Notes: generated by a model from the sequence alone, not told the origin. Counted from the first letter of the stretch, positions 20,910 to 26,855 are shown. The stretch: 64,000 bases of DNA from Escherichia coli (GCF_003018255.1 NZ_CP027440.1), one strand, 5' to 3'. Numbers and translations: made by a program.

Positions 20910-20985
20910 ATAAGAAAACCCTTAAGTCTGTGCGACACAGGCTTAAGGGTTTCTACCCCATCCGGCGCTTATCTCCGGCACTCAC
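20910..20985 (-). ncRNA. rydB: Candidate small RNA RydB (boundaries approximate)
   Basis: Minus-strand intrinsic terminator (stem aaacccttaag/cttaagggttt then TTTTCTTATTTC on minus) in the sufA-ydiH spacer where RydB is known to map. Confidence 0.4.
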
Positions 20986-21174
20986 AGTGGCTTAGCTCTT
21001 GAAGGGGCGATAAGAATAATCTCATAAAGCTAACCCGCCGTTTTAACACAAACTGCGATTAGTATTATTTTTGAACAATATCAGGCGGATAGATAAGCAG
21101 TATTAAGAAGGTCATCGAACCTGGACGGAGGTTAATCCAGGTCGATTTGGCAAAATTGCGGCATTAAGTCAGGA

Positions 21175-21363
21175 TCAATGCACGCCCAGACGCCAGGCAA
21201 AGTAGATTTCTTCTTTTAATTCAGCAGAAGAGAGAGTAAGCAGGTCAGCAAATTCAAGTTCTAGTTGTTTCAGACGTTTGAGATATTGGGCAGGTGAAAG
21301 ATTGCTCTGGTCACGGCGTAAAAATTCAATGGCCAGCTGGGTGGGATCAAGTTGAGTAGACAT
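21175..21363 (-). CDS. ydiH: Small uncharacterised protein, 62 aa
   Basis: Track ORF extends to 21444; the internal ATG at 21363 gives a 62-aa product matching YdiH. Confidence 0.65.
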   Translation of the reverse strand: MSTQLDPTQLAIEFLRRDQSNLSPAQYLKRLKQLELEFADLLTLSSAELKEEIYFAWRLGVH

Positions 21364-21462
21364 AGCATCCTCGCTTTTAGACAAGACCTGCACAGTATAC
21401 CACCGTTTACTGTGCAGATAATGACCAAAAGCAATATGCGTCACACTTTTCTGGTGACAACG

Positions 21463-21873
21463 TCACAAAATGGCGGTCGTTAATCGTGACGAACAGCACA
21501 AACGCCCTTTCTCATCGAAGATTTCAATCTGCCAGACCTGGTGACGCGAACCGAGATGCAACGGTTTGCATACGCCGCGCACCCGCCCTTCTCGTGCCGA
21601 GCGGACGTGGTTAGCATTGATTTCCAGACCAACCACCTTTTGCTCACCTTCGGTACATAAATAACCGGCAACGGAACCGATACTTTCGGCCAGTACCACG
21701 GATGCCCCTCCATGCAGCAACCCGAAAGGCTGCTTTGTCCGCGAGTCTACTGGCATTGTCGCTTCAAGGGTGTCATCACCAATATGTTCAAAGCGAATAT
21801 CCAGCAACCCCACCATGTTTCCTTCACCCATGGCATTCAGTGCTTCCAGGGTGATTTTTCGTTTCCATATCAT
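21463..21873 (-). CDS. menI: Hotdog-fold thioesterase (1,4-dihydroxy-2-naphthoyl-CoA hydrolase), 136 aa
   Basis: PaaI/YdiI-family sequence; start overlaps ydiJ stop. Confidence 0.9.
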   Translation of the reverse strand: MIWKRKITLEALNAMGEGNMVGLLDIRFEHIGDDTLEATMPVDSRTKQPFGLLHGGASVVLAESIGSVAGYLCTEGEQKVVGLEINANHVRSAREGRVRGVCKPLHLGSRHQVWQIEIFDEKGRLCCSSRLTTAIL

Positions 21874-24800
21874 TTAATAATCTCCAGTAAAGCCTGCACA
21901 GGATGGCGTACCCCCGTGCCTTCGACCCGTTTTACCTGGCTACGGCAGGAATATCCGGTCGCCAGACAGCGATTACGCGGCAGTCGCTGCATCGCCTGAT
22001 GCCAGGATAACTCATAGATCCCGAGCGAATTTTTATGGTTTTTCGCTTCATGTCCGTAAGTCCCTGCCATGCCGCAGCACCCCACGCTGACATTTTCCAG
22101 TTTCGCGCCAAAACGGGCAAATATCGCAACCCATTGTGCTGGCGCGCCCGGCAAAGCGGTAACTTCGGTACAGTGACCAAAGAAATACCATGATTCACCG
22201 CTGACTGTAGCCACTGGCTGTGAGTCAAGTGCGCTTGCCAGCCATTCATTCGCCAGTAAGACGTTAAACTCGCCACGTTCCTCGCCCAGCGCCAGTTTAT
22301 ATTCATCGCGATAACAAAGTACCAGCGCCGGATCGACGCCCACCATTGGCATCCCCAGCTTCGCCATACGGTTGAGGAAATCCGCCGTCTTTTTCGCCGT
22401 CTTCGCAAAACGATTAAGAAAGCCTTTGATATGCTGGGCTTTGCCATTTGGCGAAAATGGCAGTAACACAGGCTGGAAACCTAATTTTTCAACCAGACGG
22501 ACAAAATCCGCCACCACTTGCGCATCGTAATAGCTGGTAAAGGGGTCCTGCACCACCAACACCGTGCGCGCTTTCTGCTCTGCATTGAGAGCTTCAAGCT
22601 GTTCCAGCGTCATATTCGCCGAGCGATGCCCCACCATTTGTTGTTGTAGCGAGGGGACTGACAGCAGTGGCAAATCAACCATGCCGATATGTTTTTCCGA
22701 GAGCTTGCGCACCAGCGGCTGGTTAATGAAGAAGTTAAAGGTTTTCGGCGCGCGTGCCATCAGCGGTGCGTAGCTCTCGACCGTAGCAACGAGGTGGTCA
22801 CGAAGCGGGCGTAAATAACGGGTGTGATAGAGCTGCAGAAAACGAGAGCGAAACTCCGGCACATCAATTTTGATGGGGCACTGGGTCGAACACGCTTTAC
22901 AGGCAAGACAGCCCGACATCGCCTCTTTGACTTCGTGTGAGAAGTCGTATTCGCCTTTATTCGCATGCCAGCTATTGCGCGTGCGGGCAATTAACGTCCG
23001 CAAACTGACGCCGGATTCAGGCAGTTCTTGTTCCAGTTTGAGTGGGTCAACGCCGCGATCCGCCAACAAGCGCAGCCATTCACGCACCAGCGTTGCGCGC
23101 CCTTTCGGTGAATGAATCCGGTTCTGGGTGATCTTCATCGACGGACACATCGAACTACGGGCATCAAAGTTGAAGCATAAACCGTTGCCGTTACACTCCA
23201 TCGCACCGCGCCACTGCTGGCGTACCGCAATGGGGATCTGCCGATCGAATGTACCGCGCTTCACCGCGTCCACTTTCATCATCGGCGCATCGAGACCTTC
23301 TGGCGGGCAAATCTTCCCTGGGTTGAGTCGGTTATGCGGGTCAAATGCCGCTTTCACTTTGCGCAGTTCTGCAAAAAGTTCCTCACCGAAAAACGCAGGG
23401 CTGTATTCGGCACGAAAACCTTTGCCGTGTTCGCCCCACAACAAACCACCGTATTTCGCGGTAAGCGCCACTACGTCATCAGAGATTTGCTTCATCAAAA
23501 TCTCTTGTTGCGGATCGCACATATCCAGCGCAGGACGGACGTGCAAGACACCTGCGTCGACGTGACCGAACATACCGTAGCTTAAGCCGTGGCTGTCGAG
23601 CAGCGCGCGAAATTCAGCAATATAATCGGCCAGATGTTCCGGCGGTACGCAGGTATCCTCAGCAAACGGAATTGGCTTAGCGGCACCTTTGGCATTGCCA
23701 AGCAGACCAACGGCTTTTTTGCGCATCGCATAGATACGTTCAACACCCGCCAGCTCGCGGCACACCTGCCAGCCAATCACACCTGCCTGTTGGCTGGCAA
23801 TCAGTTCATCCAACCGCGCACAGAGTGCATTTACCCGCTCATCAATCAGCGTCTCATCATCACCAGCAAATTCCACAATGTTCAGCCCGAGCATTTCTTT
23901 GTCAGGCACATCGGTAATCAACTCGCTGACGGAATGCCAGACAATATCTTCCCGCGCCAGATTCAGCACTTTTGAGTCCACCGTCTCTACCGAAAGCGCC
24001 CGCGCCTCAACCATAAACGGCGCGTTACGCAGCGCGGAGTCAAAAGAGTCATATTTGACGTTCACCAGACGGCGCACTTTAGGCAAGGGCGTAATATCCA
24101 GCCGCGCTTCGGTAATAAAGGCCAGCGTCCCTTCTGAACCCGTCAGAATGCGCGTCAGGTCGAACTCGGTCATCTCATCGTTAAAGACATGACGCAGATC
24201 GTAACCGGTAAGAAAGCGGTTAAGTTTGGGGAAGTTGTCGATGATTAACTGGCGTTGCTGACGGCAACATTGATAAACCGTGTTATAAATTCGCCCGATT
24301 GCGGTATTGGTTTTACCCAGCGTTTCTGCCAGTTCGACGGGTAAAGGTTGCGTATCGAGAATATCGCCCCCCAACAACACCGCGCGTACGCCAAGTACGT
24401 GATCTGACGTTTTGCCATAGACCAGCGATCCCTGACCGGATGCATCGGTATTGATCATCCCACCGAGCGTTGCCCGGTTGCTGGTCGAAAGTTCCGGCGC
24501 AAAAAAGTAGCCGAACGGTTTCAGGTACTGATTGAGTTGATCTTTTATCACCCCGGCCTCAACGCGCACCCAGCCCTCTTCAGGGTTAATTTCGATGATG
24601 CGGTTCATATGGCGGGACATATCAACAATAATCCCCTGGTTGAGCGCCTGACCGTTAGTGCCGGTGCCGCCGCCGCGGGGGGTAAAGATCAGCGATGAAT
24701 AGCGTTCCTGCGCGGCAAGACGGGCTATAAGCGCCACATCTGCGGTTGAACGCGGAAATACCACCGCATCGGGGAGAAGTTGGTAAATACTGTTGTCGGT

Positions 24801-24926
24801 CGACATTGTCAGACGATCGGCATAACTTGTCGCCGTATCGCCGGTAAAACCTTGTTGCTCCAGCTCTTGCAAAAAATTAAGCACCAGTTGAACGACGCCG
24901 GGTGCCTGGGAAATCTGTGGAATCAT
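21870..24926 (-). CDS. ydiJ: FAD-linked oxidase fused to Fe-S/CCG domains (D-2-hydroxyglutarate dehydrogenase family), 1018 aa
   Basis: Track ORF extends to 24998, but the ATG at 24926 gives MIPQISQAPG; cysteine cluster CLACKACSTQCP. Confidence 0.9.
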   Translation of the reverse strand: MIPQISQAPGVVQLVLNFLQELEQQGFTGDTATSYADRLTMSTDNSIYQLLPDAVVFPRSTADVALIARLAAQERYSSLIFTPRGGGTGTNGQALNQGIIVDMSRHMNRIIEINPEEGWVRVEAGVIKDQLNQYLKPFGYFFAPELSTSNRATLGGMINTDASGQGSLVYGKTSDHVLGVRAVLLGGDILDTQPLPVELAETLGKTNTAIGRIYNTVYQCCRQQRQLIIDNFPKLNRFLTGYDLRHVFNDEMTEFDLTRILTGSEGTLAFITEARLDITPLPKVRRLVNVKYDSFDSALRNAPFMVEARALSVETVDSKVLNLAREDIVWHSVSELITDVPDKEMLGLNIVEFAGDDETLIDERVNALCARLDELIASQQAGVIGWQVCRELAGVERIYAMRKKAVGLLGNAKGAAKPIPFAEDTCVPPEHLADYIAEFRALLDSHGLSYGMFGHVDAGVLHVRPALDMCDPQQEILMKQISDDVVALTAKYGGLLWGEHGKGFRAEYSPAFFGEELFAELRKVKAAFDPHNRLNPGKICPPEGLDAPMMKVDAVKRGTFDRQIPIAVRQQWRGAMECNGNGLCFNFDARSSMCPSMKITQNRIHSPKGRATLVREWLRLLADRGVDPLKLEQELPESGVSLRTLIARTRNSWHANKGEYDFSHEVKEAMSGCLACKACSTQCPIKIDVPEFRSRFLQLYHTRYLRPLRDHLVATVESYAPLMARAPKTFNFFINQPLVRKLSEKHIGMVDLPLLSVPSLQQQMVGHRSANMTLEQLEALNAEQKARTVLVVQDPFTSYYDAQVVADFVRLVEKLGFQPVLLPFSPNGKAQHIKGFLNRFAKTAKKTADFLNRMAKLGMPMVGVDPALVLCYRDEYKLALGEERGEFNVLLANEWLASALDSQPVATVSGESWYFFGHCTEVTALPGAPAQWVAIFARFGAKLENVSVGCCGMAGTYGHEAKNHKNSLGIYELSWHQAMQRLPRNRCLATGYSCRSQVKRVEGTGVRHPVQALLEIIK

Positions 24927-25314
24927 TATATTGACCCTTTCCTGCGGTCTGTGATGTAGGTCGATACACTGTTCTTTCAGGCGGCTGCAATAGCGCACTG
25001 AAAGGTGATGTTTGTTTACTCTATGGATTTCGTGTTGCAGGAAGGCGGCAAGCGAGTGAACTCCAGGAGCTTACAACAGTAAGTAACTGGGGTGAACGAA
25101 CGTAGCCGCAGCATATGCAACTTGAAATACGACGAGTAAATCGTTTGCGTGTTGCCTGAGTTGTTGTACCACATTTTTTTCTAACACGCCCATCAGAATT
25201 AAGGGCAGAATCGGCCTGTTAAAAACCGCTGAAATTGCTCATCATTATGCAGGTGAGTTTCGCGTGTTCACGTCGCGTCGACGATTTGACGCACAAAAAA
25301 GGTGAAAAGTAGTT

Positions 25315-26427
25315 ATGGTAAATGTTCGTCAGCCCAGGGATGTCGCACAAATTCTGCTTTCGGTGCTGTTTTTAGCCATCATGATTGTGGCATGTCTGTG
25401 GATTGTTCAACCCTTTATTCTCGGCTTTGCATGGGCCGGTACAGTGGTTATCGCCACCTGGCCGGTATTGTTACGTTTGCAAAAGATCATGTTTGGCCGC
25501 CGCTCTCTCGCCGTTCTGGTGATGACGCTGTTATTAGTGATGGTGTTTATCATCCCTATTGCCTTGTTGGTTAACAGTATTGTCGATGGCAGCGGTCCGC
25601 TAATTAAAGCCATTTCCAGCGGTGACATGACGTTACCCGATCTGGCGTGGCTTAATACCATTCCGGTGATTGGCGCGAAGCTATATGCAGGCTGGCACAA
25701 CTTGCTGGATATGGGGGGTACGGCGATCATGGCGAAAGTCCGTCCTTATATTGGCACCACCACCACCTGGTTCGTTGGGCAGGCGGCGCATATCGGGCGC
25801 TTTATGGTGCATTGTGCGCTGATGCTTCTCTTCAGTGCCCTGCTGTACTGGCGCGGTGAACAGGTGGCACAAGGCATTCGCCATTTTGCAACCCGTCTGG
25901 CAGGCGTTCGCGGTGATGCTGCTGTGCTACTGGCGGCACAGGCTATCCGCGCGGTGGCGCTGGGTGTGGTGGTGACGGCGTTAGTACAGGCAGTGCTTGG
26001 CGGTATCGGCCTCGCCGTATCCGGCGTACCTTATGCAACTTTGCTCACGGTGTTAATGATCCTCTCCTGCCTTGTCCAGCTTGGACCGTTGCCGGTACTG
26101 ATTCCGGCGATTATCTGGCTCTACTGGACCGGTGATACCACCTGGGGAACGGTATTGTTAGTGTGGAGCGGTGTGGTTGGCACGCTGGATAACGTCATCC
26201 GCCCAATGTTAATTCGCATGGGTGCCGATTTACCGCTGATCCTGATCCTCTCTGGTGTTATTGGTGGTTTGATTGCTTTCGGGATGATCGGCCTGTTTAT
26301 TGGTCCGGTTCTGTTAGCCGTTTCCTGGCGTCTTTTTGCCGCGTGGGTGGAAGAAGTCCCACCGCCGACGGACCAACCGGAAGAAATTCTCGAAGAACTT
26401 GGCGAAATCGAGAAATCGAATAAGTAA
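25315..26427 (+). CDS. ydiK: AI-2E (PerM) family membrane transporter, 370 aa
   Basis: Multi-TM hydrophobic ORF; synteny. Confidence 0.9.
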   Translation: MVNVRQPRDVAQILLSVLFLAIMIVACLWIVQPFILGFAWAGTVVIATWPVLLRLQKIMFGRRSLAVLVMTLLLVMVFIIPIALLVNSIVDGSGPLIKAISSGDMTLPDLAWLNTIPVIGAKLYAGWHNLLDMGGTAIMAKVRPYIGTTTTWFVGQAAHIGRFMVHCALMLLFSALLYWRGEQVAQGIRHFATRLAGVRGDAAVLLAAQAIRAVALGVVVTALVQAVLGGIGLAVSGVPYATLLTVLMILSCLVQLGPLPVLIPAIIWLYWTGDTTWGTVLLVWSGVVGTLDNVIRPMLIRMGADLPLILILSGVIGGLIAFGMIGLFIGPVLLAVSWRLFAAWVEEVPPPTDQPEEILEELGEIEKSNK

Positions 26428-26612: not shown

Positions 26613-26717
26613 ACGGTTATAAATCAACATATTGATTTATAAGCATGGAAATCCCCTGAGTGAAACAACGAATTGCTGTGTGTAGTCTTTGCCCATCTCC
26701 CACGATGGGCTTTTTTT
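26613..26717 (+). ncRNA. rprA: RprA small regulatory RNA (RpoS translational activator), about 105 nt
   Basis: Sequence ACGGTTATAAATCAACATATTGATTTATAAGCATGGAAATCCCCTGAGTGAAACAACGAATTGCTGTGTGTAGTCTTTGCCCATCTCCCACGATGGGCTTTTTTTT recognised as RprA, with terminal hairpin and T-run. Confidence 0.9.
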
Positions 26718-26855
26718 TAACATTTTTCCGCTTTGCTATCTCGCCCCTCACGCTTTCCAATAATGTTGCACAAGATACTGTGACTCTCTTCAAGCCGTCA
26801 GCAGGCTGATAATGTTATTTATATTTTATTGTTTATTTCATGCAGCCATTACACG

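Follow-up and report, generated by a model that had tools for sequence, protein, structure and literature searches.

The ydiJ and menI genes of Escherichia coli overlap at their ends, and the locus raises the question of whether this overlap reflects a relationship between the two products or is incidental. An earlier note, made from the sequence alone, had described a very large fusion of FAD-linked oxidase and Fe-S domains that was translationally coupled to menI, and had taken the coupling as a hint of a functional link between the thioesterase and a 2-hydroxyacid dehydrogenase. We analyzed the locus in a window of 64,000 nucleotides, the whole stretch of DNA under study (GCF_003018255.1 NZ_CP027440.1), and the features are collected in Table 1.

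Table 1. Features of the ydiJ-menI locus, with positions counted from the first nucleotide of the window.
Feature	Position	Strand	Basis
ydiJ CDS, 1018 aa, D-2-hydroxyglutarate dehydrogenase	21870..24926	-	ORF; NCBIfam NF049975; RefSeq, same coordinates
FAD_binding_4 (residues 52-192)	24351..24773	-	Pfam PF01565, E 1.9e-38
FAD-oxidase_C (residues 281-539)	23310..24086	-	Pfam PF02913, E 2.9e-68
Ferredoxin-like Fe-S region (residues 577-687)	22866..23198	-	Pfam Fer4_8
CLACKACSTQCP ferredoxin-type motif (residues 673-684)	22875..22910	-	Regex on translation
Predicted GlpC/HdrB-like region (residues ~700-1016)	21879..22829	-	NCBIfam GlpC; invariant columns; AlphaFold model
GGAG Shine-Dalgarno-like tetramer for menI	21882..21885	-	Read from sequence
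ATGA junction: menI ATG 21873..21871 overlaps ydiJ TGA 21872..21870	21870..21873	-	Sequence and RefSeq
menI	21463..21873	-	NCBIfam NF007631; Pfam 4HBT; PDB 4K49/1SBK YdiI
Sigma-70-like site TTGTCA-16-CATATT, downstream of menI	21433..21460	-	Promoter scan
Divergent ydiJ/ydiK intergenic region	24927..25314	.	Must hold the ydiJ promoter

Both genes were already known. The ydiJ reading frame begins with an ATG at 24926, ends with the TGA at the menI junction and encodes 1018 residues (MIPQISQ...LLEIIK). The longest mechanical ORF starts further upstream, at GTG 24998 (1042 aa); the 1018-residue start agrees with the RefSeq annotation of NZ_AP025214.2, whose record is 100% identical, with an end-to-end alignment to the 1018-position NCBIfam YdiJ profile and with homologues of 1018 aa. 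The product scored 1727.2 bits on this equivalog profile (NF049975; cutoff 1350), with residues 1-1016 covering profile positions 1-1017 of 1018, and it shared 98-99% identity with the common clusters of E. coli YdiJ proteins. Most E. coli genomes matched the locus at 95-99% identity, and the neighbors (ydiK, menI, ydiH and suf) were those of E. coli K-12, whose YdiJ (P77748 / NP_416202) is encoded by the same gene with no difference of substance.

The ydiJ gene is a characterized D-2-hydroxyglutarate dehydrogenase (D2HGDH) gene. Samsonov et al. (2022, PMC9504171) identified YdiJ as the enzyme that recycles this SerA by-product; a ydiJ knockout accumulated D-2-hydroxyglutarate (D-2-HG), and the purified protein showed a Km of 83 uM and strict specificity. 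The oxidation of D-2-hydroxyglutarate to 2-ketoglutarate by E. coli YdiJ is experimental both in that report and in a second one (PMC12297413), which further found that the GlcD and GlpC halves were both indispensable and that deletion of serA abolished the accumulation of D-2-HG. The earlier designation as a 2-hydroxyacid dehydrogenase was thus right, since the profile match and the literature agree on the D-2-hydroxyglutarate enzyme.

Profile-HMM annotation resolved YdiJ into FAD_binding_4, FAD-oxidase_C and Fer4_8 domains. The first two are predicted to form a GlcD-like half together, and PDB sequence matches of the FAD half included LctD, glycolate oxidase, D-LDH and D2HGDH. The Fe-S region that follows contained one incomplete motif (C578/C584/C594) and one complete motif (C673-x2-C676-x2-C679-x3-C683-P), and all seven of these cysteines were invariant among 26 diverse homologues; chemoproteomics has assigned C673 and C683 as cluster ligands. 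YdiJ contains 20 cysteines, of which 11 were invariant across the 26 homologues. As evident from these results, the earlier note had correctly read the 1018-residue product, the fusion of an FAD oxidase with a C-terminal Fe-S part, the cysteine-rich character of that part, including CLACKACSTQCP, and the overlap of the menI start with the ydiJ stop, which is annotated alike in RefSeq.

The C-terminal half was more divergent. The NCBIfam GlpC profile aligned with residues 664-1016 at an E-value of 5e-32, which was under its cutoff, and the Pfam CCG domain was absent from residues 700-1018 (the C-terminal 319 residues) even at E <= 1. Cysteines are retained at the second CCG-type site only, with C919, C950-C951-G952 (CCG codons at 22071-22079) and C994 invariant among the 26 homologues. 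The AlphaFold model of this half (pLDDT 91.2) matched the folds of EtfD and HdrB at E-values of 1e-5 to 5e-4. Judged from the modeled fold and the C...CCG...C pattern, the C-terminal half is HdrD/GlpC-like, with one of the two usual sites.

Upon comparison with known systems, YdiJ resembled several of them without being identical to any. Its N-terminal half aligned with GlcD of the GlcD/GlcF glycolate oxidase (E 1.9e-56), and its C-terminal half aligned with GlpC of the anaerobic glycerol-3-phosphate dehydrogenase, as described above, although the GlcD and GlpC profile scores were far under the equivalog cutoffs. YdiJ joins the flavoprotein and Fe-S parts in one chain, whereas the GlcD/GlcF and GlpC systems have a separate subunit for each; additionally, the first ferredoxin motif of YdiJ is incomplete and cysteines are kept at one CCG site only. 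The best fold match of the C-terminal half was mycobacterial EtfD (PDB 9ojn; PMC13083937; E 1.4e-5), and HdrB also matched (E 4e-4; TM 0.56 on the target). Like YdiJ, these proteins carry a pair of [4Fe-4S]-binding domains ahead of CCG domains, and the YdiJ pattern C919-x30-CC-x35-C987-x6-C994 resembles the noncubane cluster D2 site of EtfD (C-x34-CC-x35-C-x2-C). In contrast, the first CCG cluster position of the HdrB/EtfD type has no cysteines in YdiJ, and the large rmsd of the YdiJ-EtfD alignment (11.9 Å) indicates that the domain arrangement differs. Two Pseudomonas putida proteins share the two-half architecture, namely PP4493, a D2HGDH composed of GlcD and GlpC parts that is reported to be 51% identical to YdiJ, and PP4737, an Fe-S D-lactate dehydrogenase that uses quinone (PMC12297413).

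From this architecture, the GlcD-like FAD domain would oxidize D-2-hydroxyglutarate, formed by SerA, back to 2-ketoglutarate, and the electrons would pass from FAD through the ferredoxin-like [4Fe-4S] region and the HdrD/GlpC-like CCG region to an acceptor, which would probably be a quinone of the membrane. EtfD has a transmembrane heme-b domain, which is its route to menaquinone; YdiJ has none, so a direct reaction with quinone is not established.

The downstream gene is menI, which encodes a thioesterase of the menaquinone pathway. Its product scored 312.2 bits on the NCBIfam MenI model (NF007631; cutoff 226) and matched the PDB entries 4K49/1SBK of YdiI with E-values of ~1e-89 to 3e-89. MenI (YdiI) and its paralogue EntH (YbdB) are both hotdog-fold thioesterases; on the EntH model the product reached 195.9 bits, under the cutoff of 237, and it is therefore closer to MenI than to EntH.

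At the junction, the GGAG tetramer lies within the ydiJ codons CTG GAG (Leu-Glu), 8 nt upstream of the menI ATG, so that ydiJ codons would supply the ribosome-binding site of menI. Because this in-frame GGAG is combined with the overlap of the ydiJ TGA and the menI ATG, the most likely route to MenI is translation of the ydiJ message, with ribosomes either terminating at the junction or binding there. No RNA structure masking the menI start was found at the junction (z = -0.08), and strict coupling by unmasking of the start site is thus not indicated. The two genes are thus putatively coupled in translation.

An alternative is that a promoter within the ydiJ coding sequence drives menI separately and that the overlap plays no part in menI expression. 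Promoters within genes are frequent in E. coli. The earlier note had named independent promoters and a lack of co-expression as signs of an incidental overlap. No sigma-70-like menI promoter was predicted in the 3' end of ydiJ or at any other minus-strand position within the gene; the scan was crude and of limited sensitivity, and it also missed the promoter of ydiJ itself. The same scan revealed no promoter-like or terminator-like site between the two genes, and the first promoter-like site on the minus strand lay past menI. The hexamers of that site are those of the constitutive ydiH promoter described by Shimada (2014; PMC3946193), and it likely marks both where the ydiJ-menI unit ends on its 3' side and a separate ydiH promoter. 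The divergent region between ydiJ and ydiK contains a 126-nt imperfect palindromic element. The operon label 'ydiJI', which lists the genes as one unit, already appears in Shimada 2014 (PMC3946193), and together with the sequence features this label supports a predicted two-gene operon of ydiJ and menI. Apart from this one label, the text searches for co-expression or transcription-unit data found gene lists. We consider a separate menI promoter improbable, also in view of the comparative results described below, which fit ribosomes that reach menI along the ydiJ message or are recruited at the end of that message.

We compared 80 species-level ydiJ loci from Enterobacterales and related orders. 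An ATGA or TGATG/TAATG junction, corresponding to an overlap of -4 or -1, was present in 43 of the 80 loci, and GGAG was found in the last ydiJ codons of 40 of these 43, in contrast to 2 of the other 37. Within Enterobacterales alone, the tetramer was present at 39/42 overlapping and 1/10 other loci (Fisher p = 5.6e-7, in a test that ignores the phylogenetic relatedness of the loci). Loci with a spacer between the genes mostly had, in place of GGAG, a new SD-like motif within that spacer. This covariation of GGAG with the overlap points to selection on the translation of menI from the ydiJ message.

The pairing itself was also conserved. A MenI-type hotdog gene immediately followed ydiJ in 48 of 52 Enterobacterales, and a hotdog gene did so in five of six Pasteurellales, with one pair split by an IS; the downstream hotdog gene was also found in all six Aeromonas and in Psychromonas. 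The hotdog proteins linked to ydiJ outside Enterobacterales are members of the MenI/EntH (YbdB) subfamily; the MenI model and the EntH model gave them equal scores, under both cutoffs. The genes ydiK, sufA and ydiH never adjoined ydiJ outside Enterobacterales among the 80 loci. New here are the conserved adjacency of ydiJ and the hotdog gene, with an overlap kept across several bacterial orders, and the covariation of the overlap with GGAG.

The pair was absent from all ten Vibrionaceae, from Moritella, Rheinheimera, Lacimicrobium and Desulfuromusa, and from four Erwiniaceae and six distant homologues. Among the Erwiniaceae, Pantoea, Tatumella and Rosenbergiella have lost menI at this position. 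In Aeromonas, ydiJ and the hotdog gene are separated by a terminator and by a 162-aa ORF for which neither Pfam nor NCBIfam gave a family. No serA gene was found within 6 kb of ydiJ in any of the 80 loci, and in two of the six distant loci a SerA-like gene immediately preceded the ydiJ-type gene in the same orientation, which fits the role in D-2-HG recycling. These two loci resemble the serA-d2hgdh pairing known from the coupling of SerA and D2HGDH in L-serine synthesis (cited in PMC9504171), whereas the conserved partner of ydiJ among the 80 loci was the hotdog gene. None of the six distant homologue loci sampled had a hotdog thioesterase neighbor.

The conserved pairing may nevertheless be a product of neutral operon packing, in which menI came to lie behind ydiJ historically and the tight junction serves menI expression with no shared physiology, comparable to btuE in btuCED. 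We give this reading somewhat less than an even chance. A 4-nt overlap is in itself not unusual, and within the same 50 kb we observed overlaps of 4 nt at ydiS/ydiT and at sufD/sufS and of 1 nt at btuE/btuD; BtuE, a peroxidase, has no relation to B12 transport, and this pair is a local counter-example to the expectation that overlapping genes are functionally related. The absences in Vibrionaceae and in all six distant lineages sampled, the tolerance of Aeromonas for an inserted ORF and terminator, and the lack of a 4HBT domain in the five longest YdiJ homologues (1056-1144 aa) are in line with neutral packing, and our literature search found no paper linking YdiJ and MenI. On the other hand, the adjacency with the hotdog gene outlasts every other neighbor of ydiJ over at least three orders, and in comparative genomics such persistence usually marks functionally linked pairs. 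The coupling proposed in the earlier note is thus not incidental in evolution, given the adjacency in Enterobacterales, Pasteurellales, Aeromonas and Psychromonas and the covarying GGAG; the functional link proposed with it is plausible but is still only a hint, in view of the absences, the split pair in Aeromonas, the missing fusions, the silent literature and btuE/btuD.

The physiological reason for the pairing may lie in a connection of YdiJ and MenI to the naphthoquinone pool, a proposal that we make tentatively. YdiJ would pass electrons to demethylmenaquinone or menaquinone, and MenI would be co-expressed so that the supply of acceptor follows the supply of the dehydrogenase; this is possible but unlikely. 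MenI releases DHNA, the precursor of the naphthoquinone head group, and the pair is kept in Pasteurellaceae, which rely on demethylmenaquinone. Against this connection, the pairing is missing from the Vibrionaceae, YdiJ lacks membrane and heme domains, and the thioesterase step is not known to limit the supply of menaquinone. PMC9504171 states explicitly that the physiological electron acceptor of YdiJ is unknown, and direct electron transfer from the GlpC half to quinone has been proposed by analogy to PP4737 (PMC12297413). The alignment to GlpC and the fold match to EtfD, a protein that wires electrons to menaquinone, likewise speak for the quinone connection. However, homologues work in Pseudomonas, which has ubiquinone only (PP4493; PMC12297413), and the YdiJ family is therefore not tied to naphthoquinones. 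It is doubtful that the selected ydiJ-menI coupling marks YdiJ as naphthoquinone-linked, with demethylmenaquinone or menaquinone as its acceptor in enterics and Pasteurellaceae.

A direct partnership appears highly improbable, whether as an equimolar YdiJ-MenI complex or as metabolite repair in which the hotdog enzyme hydrolyzes a CoA thioester related to 2-hydroxyglutarate and feeds YdiJ. Translational coupling often serves subunit stoichiometry, YdiJ is reported to be a homotetramer (PMC9504171), and YdiI crystallizes with multiple chains (16 in three PDB entries). Conversely, the five longest homologues contained no fusion, many lineages do without the pairing, and YdiI reportedly favors aromatic and long-chain acyl-CoAs. 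In addition, purified YdiJ is active alone (PMC9504171).

Taken together, we consider it likely that this locus encodes a single-chain D2HGDH in an overlapping ydiJ-menI operon, an arrangement that dates back to the ancestor of the Enterobacterales-Pasteurellales-Aeromonadales group and would have been kept by selection on menI expression. Expression of menI seems to rely on the ydiJ message and its final codons. MenI, and with it menaquinone, could therefore be reduced by ydiJ insertions or deletions in which the promoter-proximal transcript or the GGAG is lost, and this would confound the phenotypes of ydiJ mutants and of D-2-HG production strains. Apart from these points, the locus is a well-annotated segment of the E. 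coli chromosome. The conserved pairing also suggests a specific hypothesis for the acceptor of YdiJ, naphthoquinone versus ubiquinone; if true, a naphthoquinone-linked YdiJ would tie the recycling of a serine-pathway by-product to the anaerobic respiratory chain.

The window is chromosomal E. coli DNA. The minus-strand reading frame of ydiJ encodes 1018 residues, and its surroundings in the window (21100-25320) were 100% identical to NZ_AP025214.2 and were found in 5423 of 5426 complete E. coli genomes. In RefSeq, the divergent ydiK lies upstream of ydiJ, and menI, ydiH and sufA lie downstream. The earlier note had described the product as a FAD-linked oxidase fused to a cysteine-rich Fe-S part, and the ORF, the Pfam domains and the CLACKACSTQCP motif (residues 673-684) bear this out. 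The profile HMM annotation that it had proposed revealed FAD_binding_4 (residues 52-192), FAD-oxidase_C (281-539) and Fer4_8 (577-687), and the NCBIfam equivalog 'D-2-hydroxyglutarate dehydrogenase YdiJ' was matched end to end with 1727 bits (cutoff 1350). An alignment with GlpC covered the last 350 residues. This fusion type is widespread: at E <= 1e-30, it was represented by 2235 clusters of 50% identity, of which many are full length.

Coordinates of the features (L, ydiJ homologue loci in other genomes, with their own coordinates; all others, the window)
Feature	Coordinates	Strand	Remark
ydiJ	24926..21870	-	ATG 24926, TGA 21872..21870; RefSeq exactly the same
menI	21873..21463	-	RefSeq, after ydiJ
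ydiH	21363..21175	-	RefSeq, after menI
menI-ydiH hairpin	21358-21465	-	intergenic
rydB small RNA (Rfam)	20948-21008	-	between sufA and ydiH
RprA small RNA (Rfam)	26613-26720	+	after ydiK
Imperfect palindromic element	25015-25140		ydiJ/ydiK divergent intergenic region
Edwardsiella ictaluri ydiJ extension	L043:9030-9100
Aeromonas 162-aa ORF	L047:9057-9545, L048:9063-9551, L055:9078-9566
Rodentibacter heidelbergensis insert	L062:9070-10523
Vibrio gene after ydiJ	L061:9065-9526, L064:9099-9560, L070:9027-9488
SerA-like gene	L082:1515-2744, L083:1693-2940		upstream of distant ydiJ

The function of YdiJ is already settled by the literature. Its knockout leads to D-2-hydroxyglutarate (D-2-HG) build-up in E. 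coli and Pantoea ananatis, and the purified enzyme (110 kDa, homotetramer, Km 83 uM) is strictly specific, its primary electron acceptor being stated as 'unknown' (Samsonov et al. 2022, PMC9504171). A 2025 study (PMC12297413) reported that loss of either the GlcD half or the GlpC half abolishes function, named SerA as the D-2-HG source, and, from the analogy with PP4737, a quinone-using Fe-S D-lactate dehydrogenase of Pseudomonas putida, put quinone forward as the acceptor.

When 26 full-length homologues (34-58% identical) were aligned, 11 cysteines proved invariant: C578, C584, C594, C673, C676, C679, C683, C919, C950, C951 and C994. A chemoproteomic study identified Fe-S ligands at C673 and C683 and described the first ferredoxin motif as incomplete. 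No Pfam sequence match to a CCG domain was found in YdiJ. The solved structures that best matched the AlphaFold model of residues 545-1018 (pLDDT 91.2) in fold were mycobacterial EtfD (9ojn, E 1.4e-5) and HdrB (E ~4e-4; 5odc_B and others). In EtfD, two [4Fe-4S] domains and two CCG domains wire electrons to heme b and on to menaquinone, and the noncubane cluster D2 has the pattern C-x34-CC-x35-C-x2-C (PMC13083937). This pattern is echoed in YdiJ as C919-x30-CC-x35-C987-x6-C994, only in the second CCG-like region; in contrast to EtfD, YdiJ lacks both a membrane and a heme domain.

The minus-strand junction reads ...CTG GAG ATT ATT AAA TGA TAT GG, so the menI ATG and the ydiJ TGA overlap as ATGA, as in RefSeq; the earlier note had stated that the menI start overlaps the ydiJ stop. 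An overlap of 4 nt is by itself nothing special: the same 50 kb contain two further ones, at ydiS/ydiT and sufD/sufS, and a 1-nt overlap at btuE/btuD, despite which BtuE is unconnected with B12 transport. We therefore tested conservation in a species-representative genome scan of 80 loci encoding YdiJ (59-98% identity), scoring neighbours and junctions by tblastn and a junction script. Among 52 Enterobacterales loci, 42 had an overlap of -4 (ATGA/GTGA) or -1 (TGATG/TAATG), one a 38-nt overlap (Edwardsiella), four gaps of 14-51 nt (two Yersinia, Rouxiella, Budvicia) and one a 240-nt gap (Plesiomonas), while four were without menI (two Pantoea, Tatumella, Rosenbergiella). The six Pasteurellales loci comprised one overlap, three gaps of 4-13 nt, one IS-split pair and one absence. 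The hotdog (4HBT-fold) thioesterase gene was present in all six Aeromonas loci, ~600 nt downstream, with a 162-aa conserved ORF and then a terminator-like hairpin in between, and lay after a 22-nt gap in Psychromonas (one locus). The MenI-type gene was absent from 10/10 Vibrionaceae and from the five loci of Moritella, Rheinheimera, Lacimicrobium, Desulfuromusa and one MAG. As an internal control across the 80 loci, ydiK, sufA and ydiH never adjoined ydiJ outside Enterobacterales; thus, the ydiJ-hotdog pair outlasts background synteny. The paired proteins scored as MenI in Enterobacterales; elsewhere, MenI and EntH profile scores were equal and under both cutoffs, so the pairing seems, on these scores, to predate the split of MenI from its paralogue EntH.

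Several junctions were individually distinctive. Owing to a 1-nt difference at the junction, the ydiJ frame of Edwardsiella ictaluri misses its usual stop and enters menI by 38 nt. The ATG of the Aeromonas 162-aa ORF overlaps the ydiJ stop (TGATG), and this ORF matched no Pfam or NCBIfam family. The ~1.45 kb insert that separates ydiJ from the hotdog gene in Rodentibacter heidelbergensis appears, from its sequence, to be an opposite-strand transposase gene. In three Vibrio species, ydiJ is followed by a gene for a 153-aa PEMT/ICMT methyltransferase-type membrane protein; in one of these species, that gene shares 1 nt with the ydiJ stop.

GGAG occurred within the last seven ydiJ codons in 40/43 overlap loci, spelt there as Leu-Glu (CTG/TTG GAG), versus 2/37 other loci. 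For Enterobacterales alone, the counts were 39/42 and 1/10 (Fisher p = 5.6e-7, a test that ignores relatedness). The two features switched in several separate lineages (spacer Yersinia versus overlap Yersinia nurmii, Rouxiella, Budvicia, and Erwiniaceae without menI), and spacer loci mostly placed a Shine-Dalgarno-like motif in the spacer instead. This pattern would be expected if menI were translated off the ydiJ message via a ribosome-binding site that lies within ydiJ. No unusual structure was seen in the junction RNA. A promoter scan found no minus-strand site inside ydiJ, the first being TTGTCA-16-CATATT just past menI; these hexamers have been listed as the constitutive ydiH promoter, and the upstream unit has been named 'ydiJI' (Shimada et al. 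2014, PMC3946193).

The menI-ydiH intergenic region folds into a long, very stable hairpin (-46.3 kcal/mol, z = -5.95 versus shuffles) spanning the ydiH Shine-Dalgarno sequence and promoter-like hexamers. It was kept in seven ydiH-bearing loci, with six pairs altered on both sides. Within it are GTGnTATACTG, which is conserved and resembles an extended -10, and an inverted repeat of 9 bp without mismatches (CTGCACAGT..ACTGTGCAG). The hairpin could be an RNA element that stabilises the 3' end of the ydiJ-menI mRNA or masks the ydiH start in read-through transcripts, or it could be a DNA operator. RydB, unannotated in the matching RefSeq record, and RprA are both at their expected places. The 126-nt palindromic element has 25-nt arms (76% complementary), and its core appears similar to an ERIC/IRU repeat.

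The earlier note had also read the coupling as a hint of a functional link. This reading is partly supported. Our literature search found no paper linking YdiJ and MenI, and no fusion occurred among the homologues checked. Neutral operon packing, with selection only on menI expression, has slightly less than an even chance of being the explanation. Six more distant YdiJ-type loci had no hotdog gene, and two of them (homologues 49% and 44% identical) carried directly upstream, on the same strand, a SerA-like gene (2-Hacid_dh and ACT domains, 409-415 aa) seen at 0/80 closer loci. The partner of ydiJ thus differs by lineage, and this adjacency fits the D-2-HG role as a genomic echo of the metabolic coupling between SerA and D-2-HG dehydrogenase. 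The most economical functional reading, a quinone-pool link between YdiJ and MenI, draws on the acceptor reported as unknown (PMC9504171), the resemblance of the Fe-S half to the quinone-feeding modules GlpC and EtfD, and the release of the naphthoquinone head-group precursor by MenI. The pair is also retained in Pasteurellaceae. These bacteria use demethylmenaquinone. However, Pseudomonas, which has only ubiquinone, also has working members of the YdiJ family, the pairing is absent from Vibrionaceae and YdiJ lacks a membrane domain. We consider this link rather improbable.

The genes, their functions and the operon listing are already known; the depth of conservation of the pair and the in-frame Shine-Dalgarno covariation are new. 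Mutations in ydiJ may have polar effects on menI. The pairing also offers a direct way to test for the electron acceptor of YdiJ.
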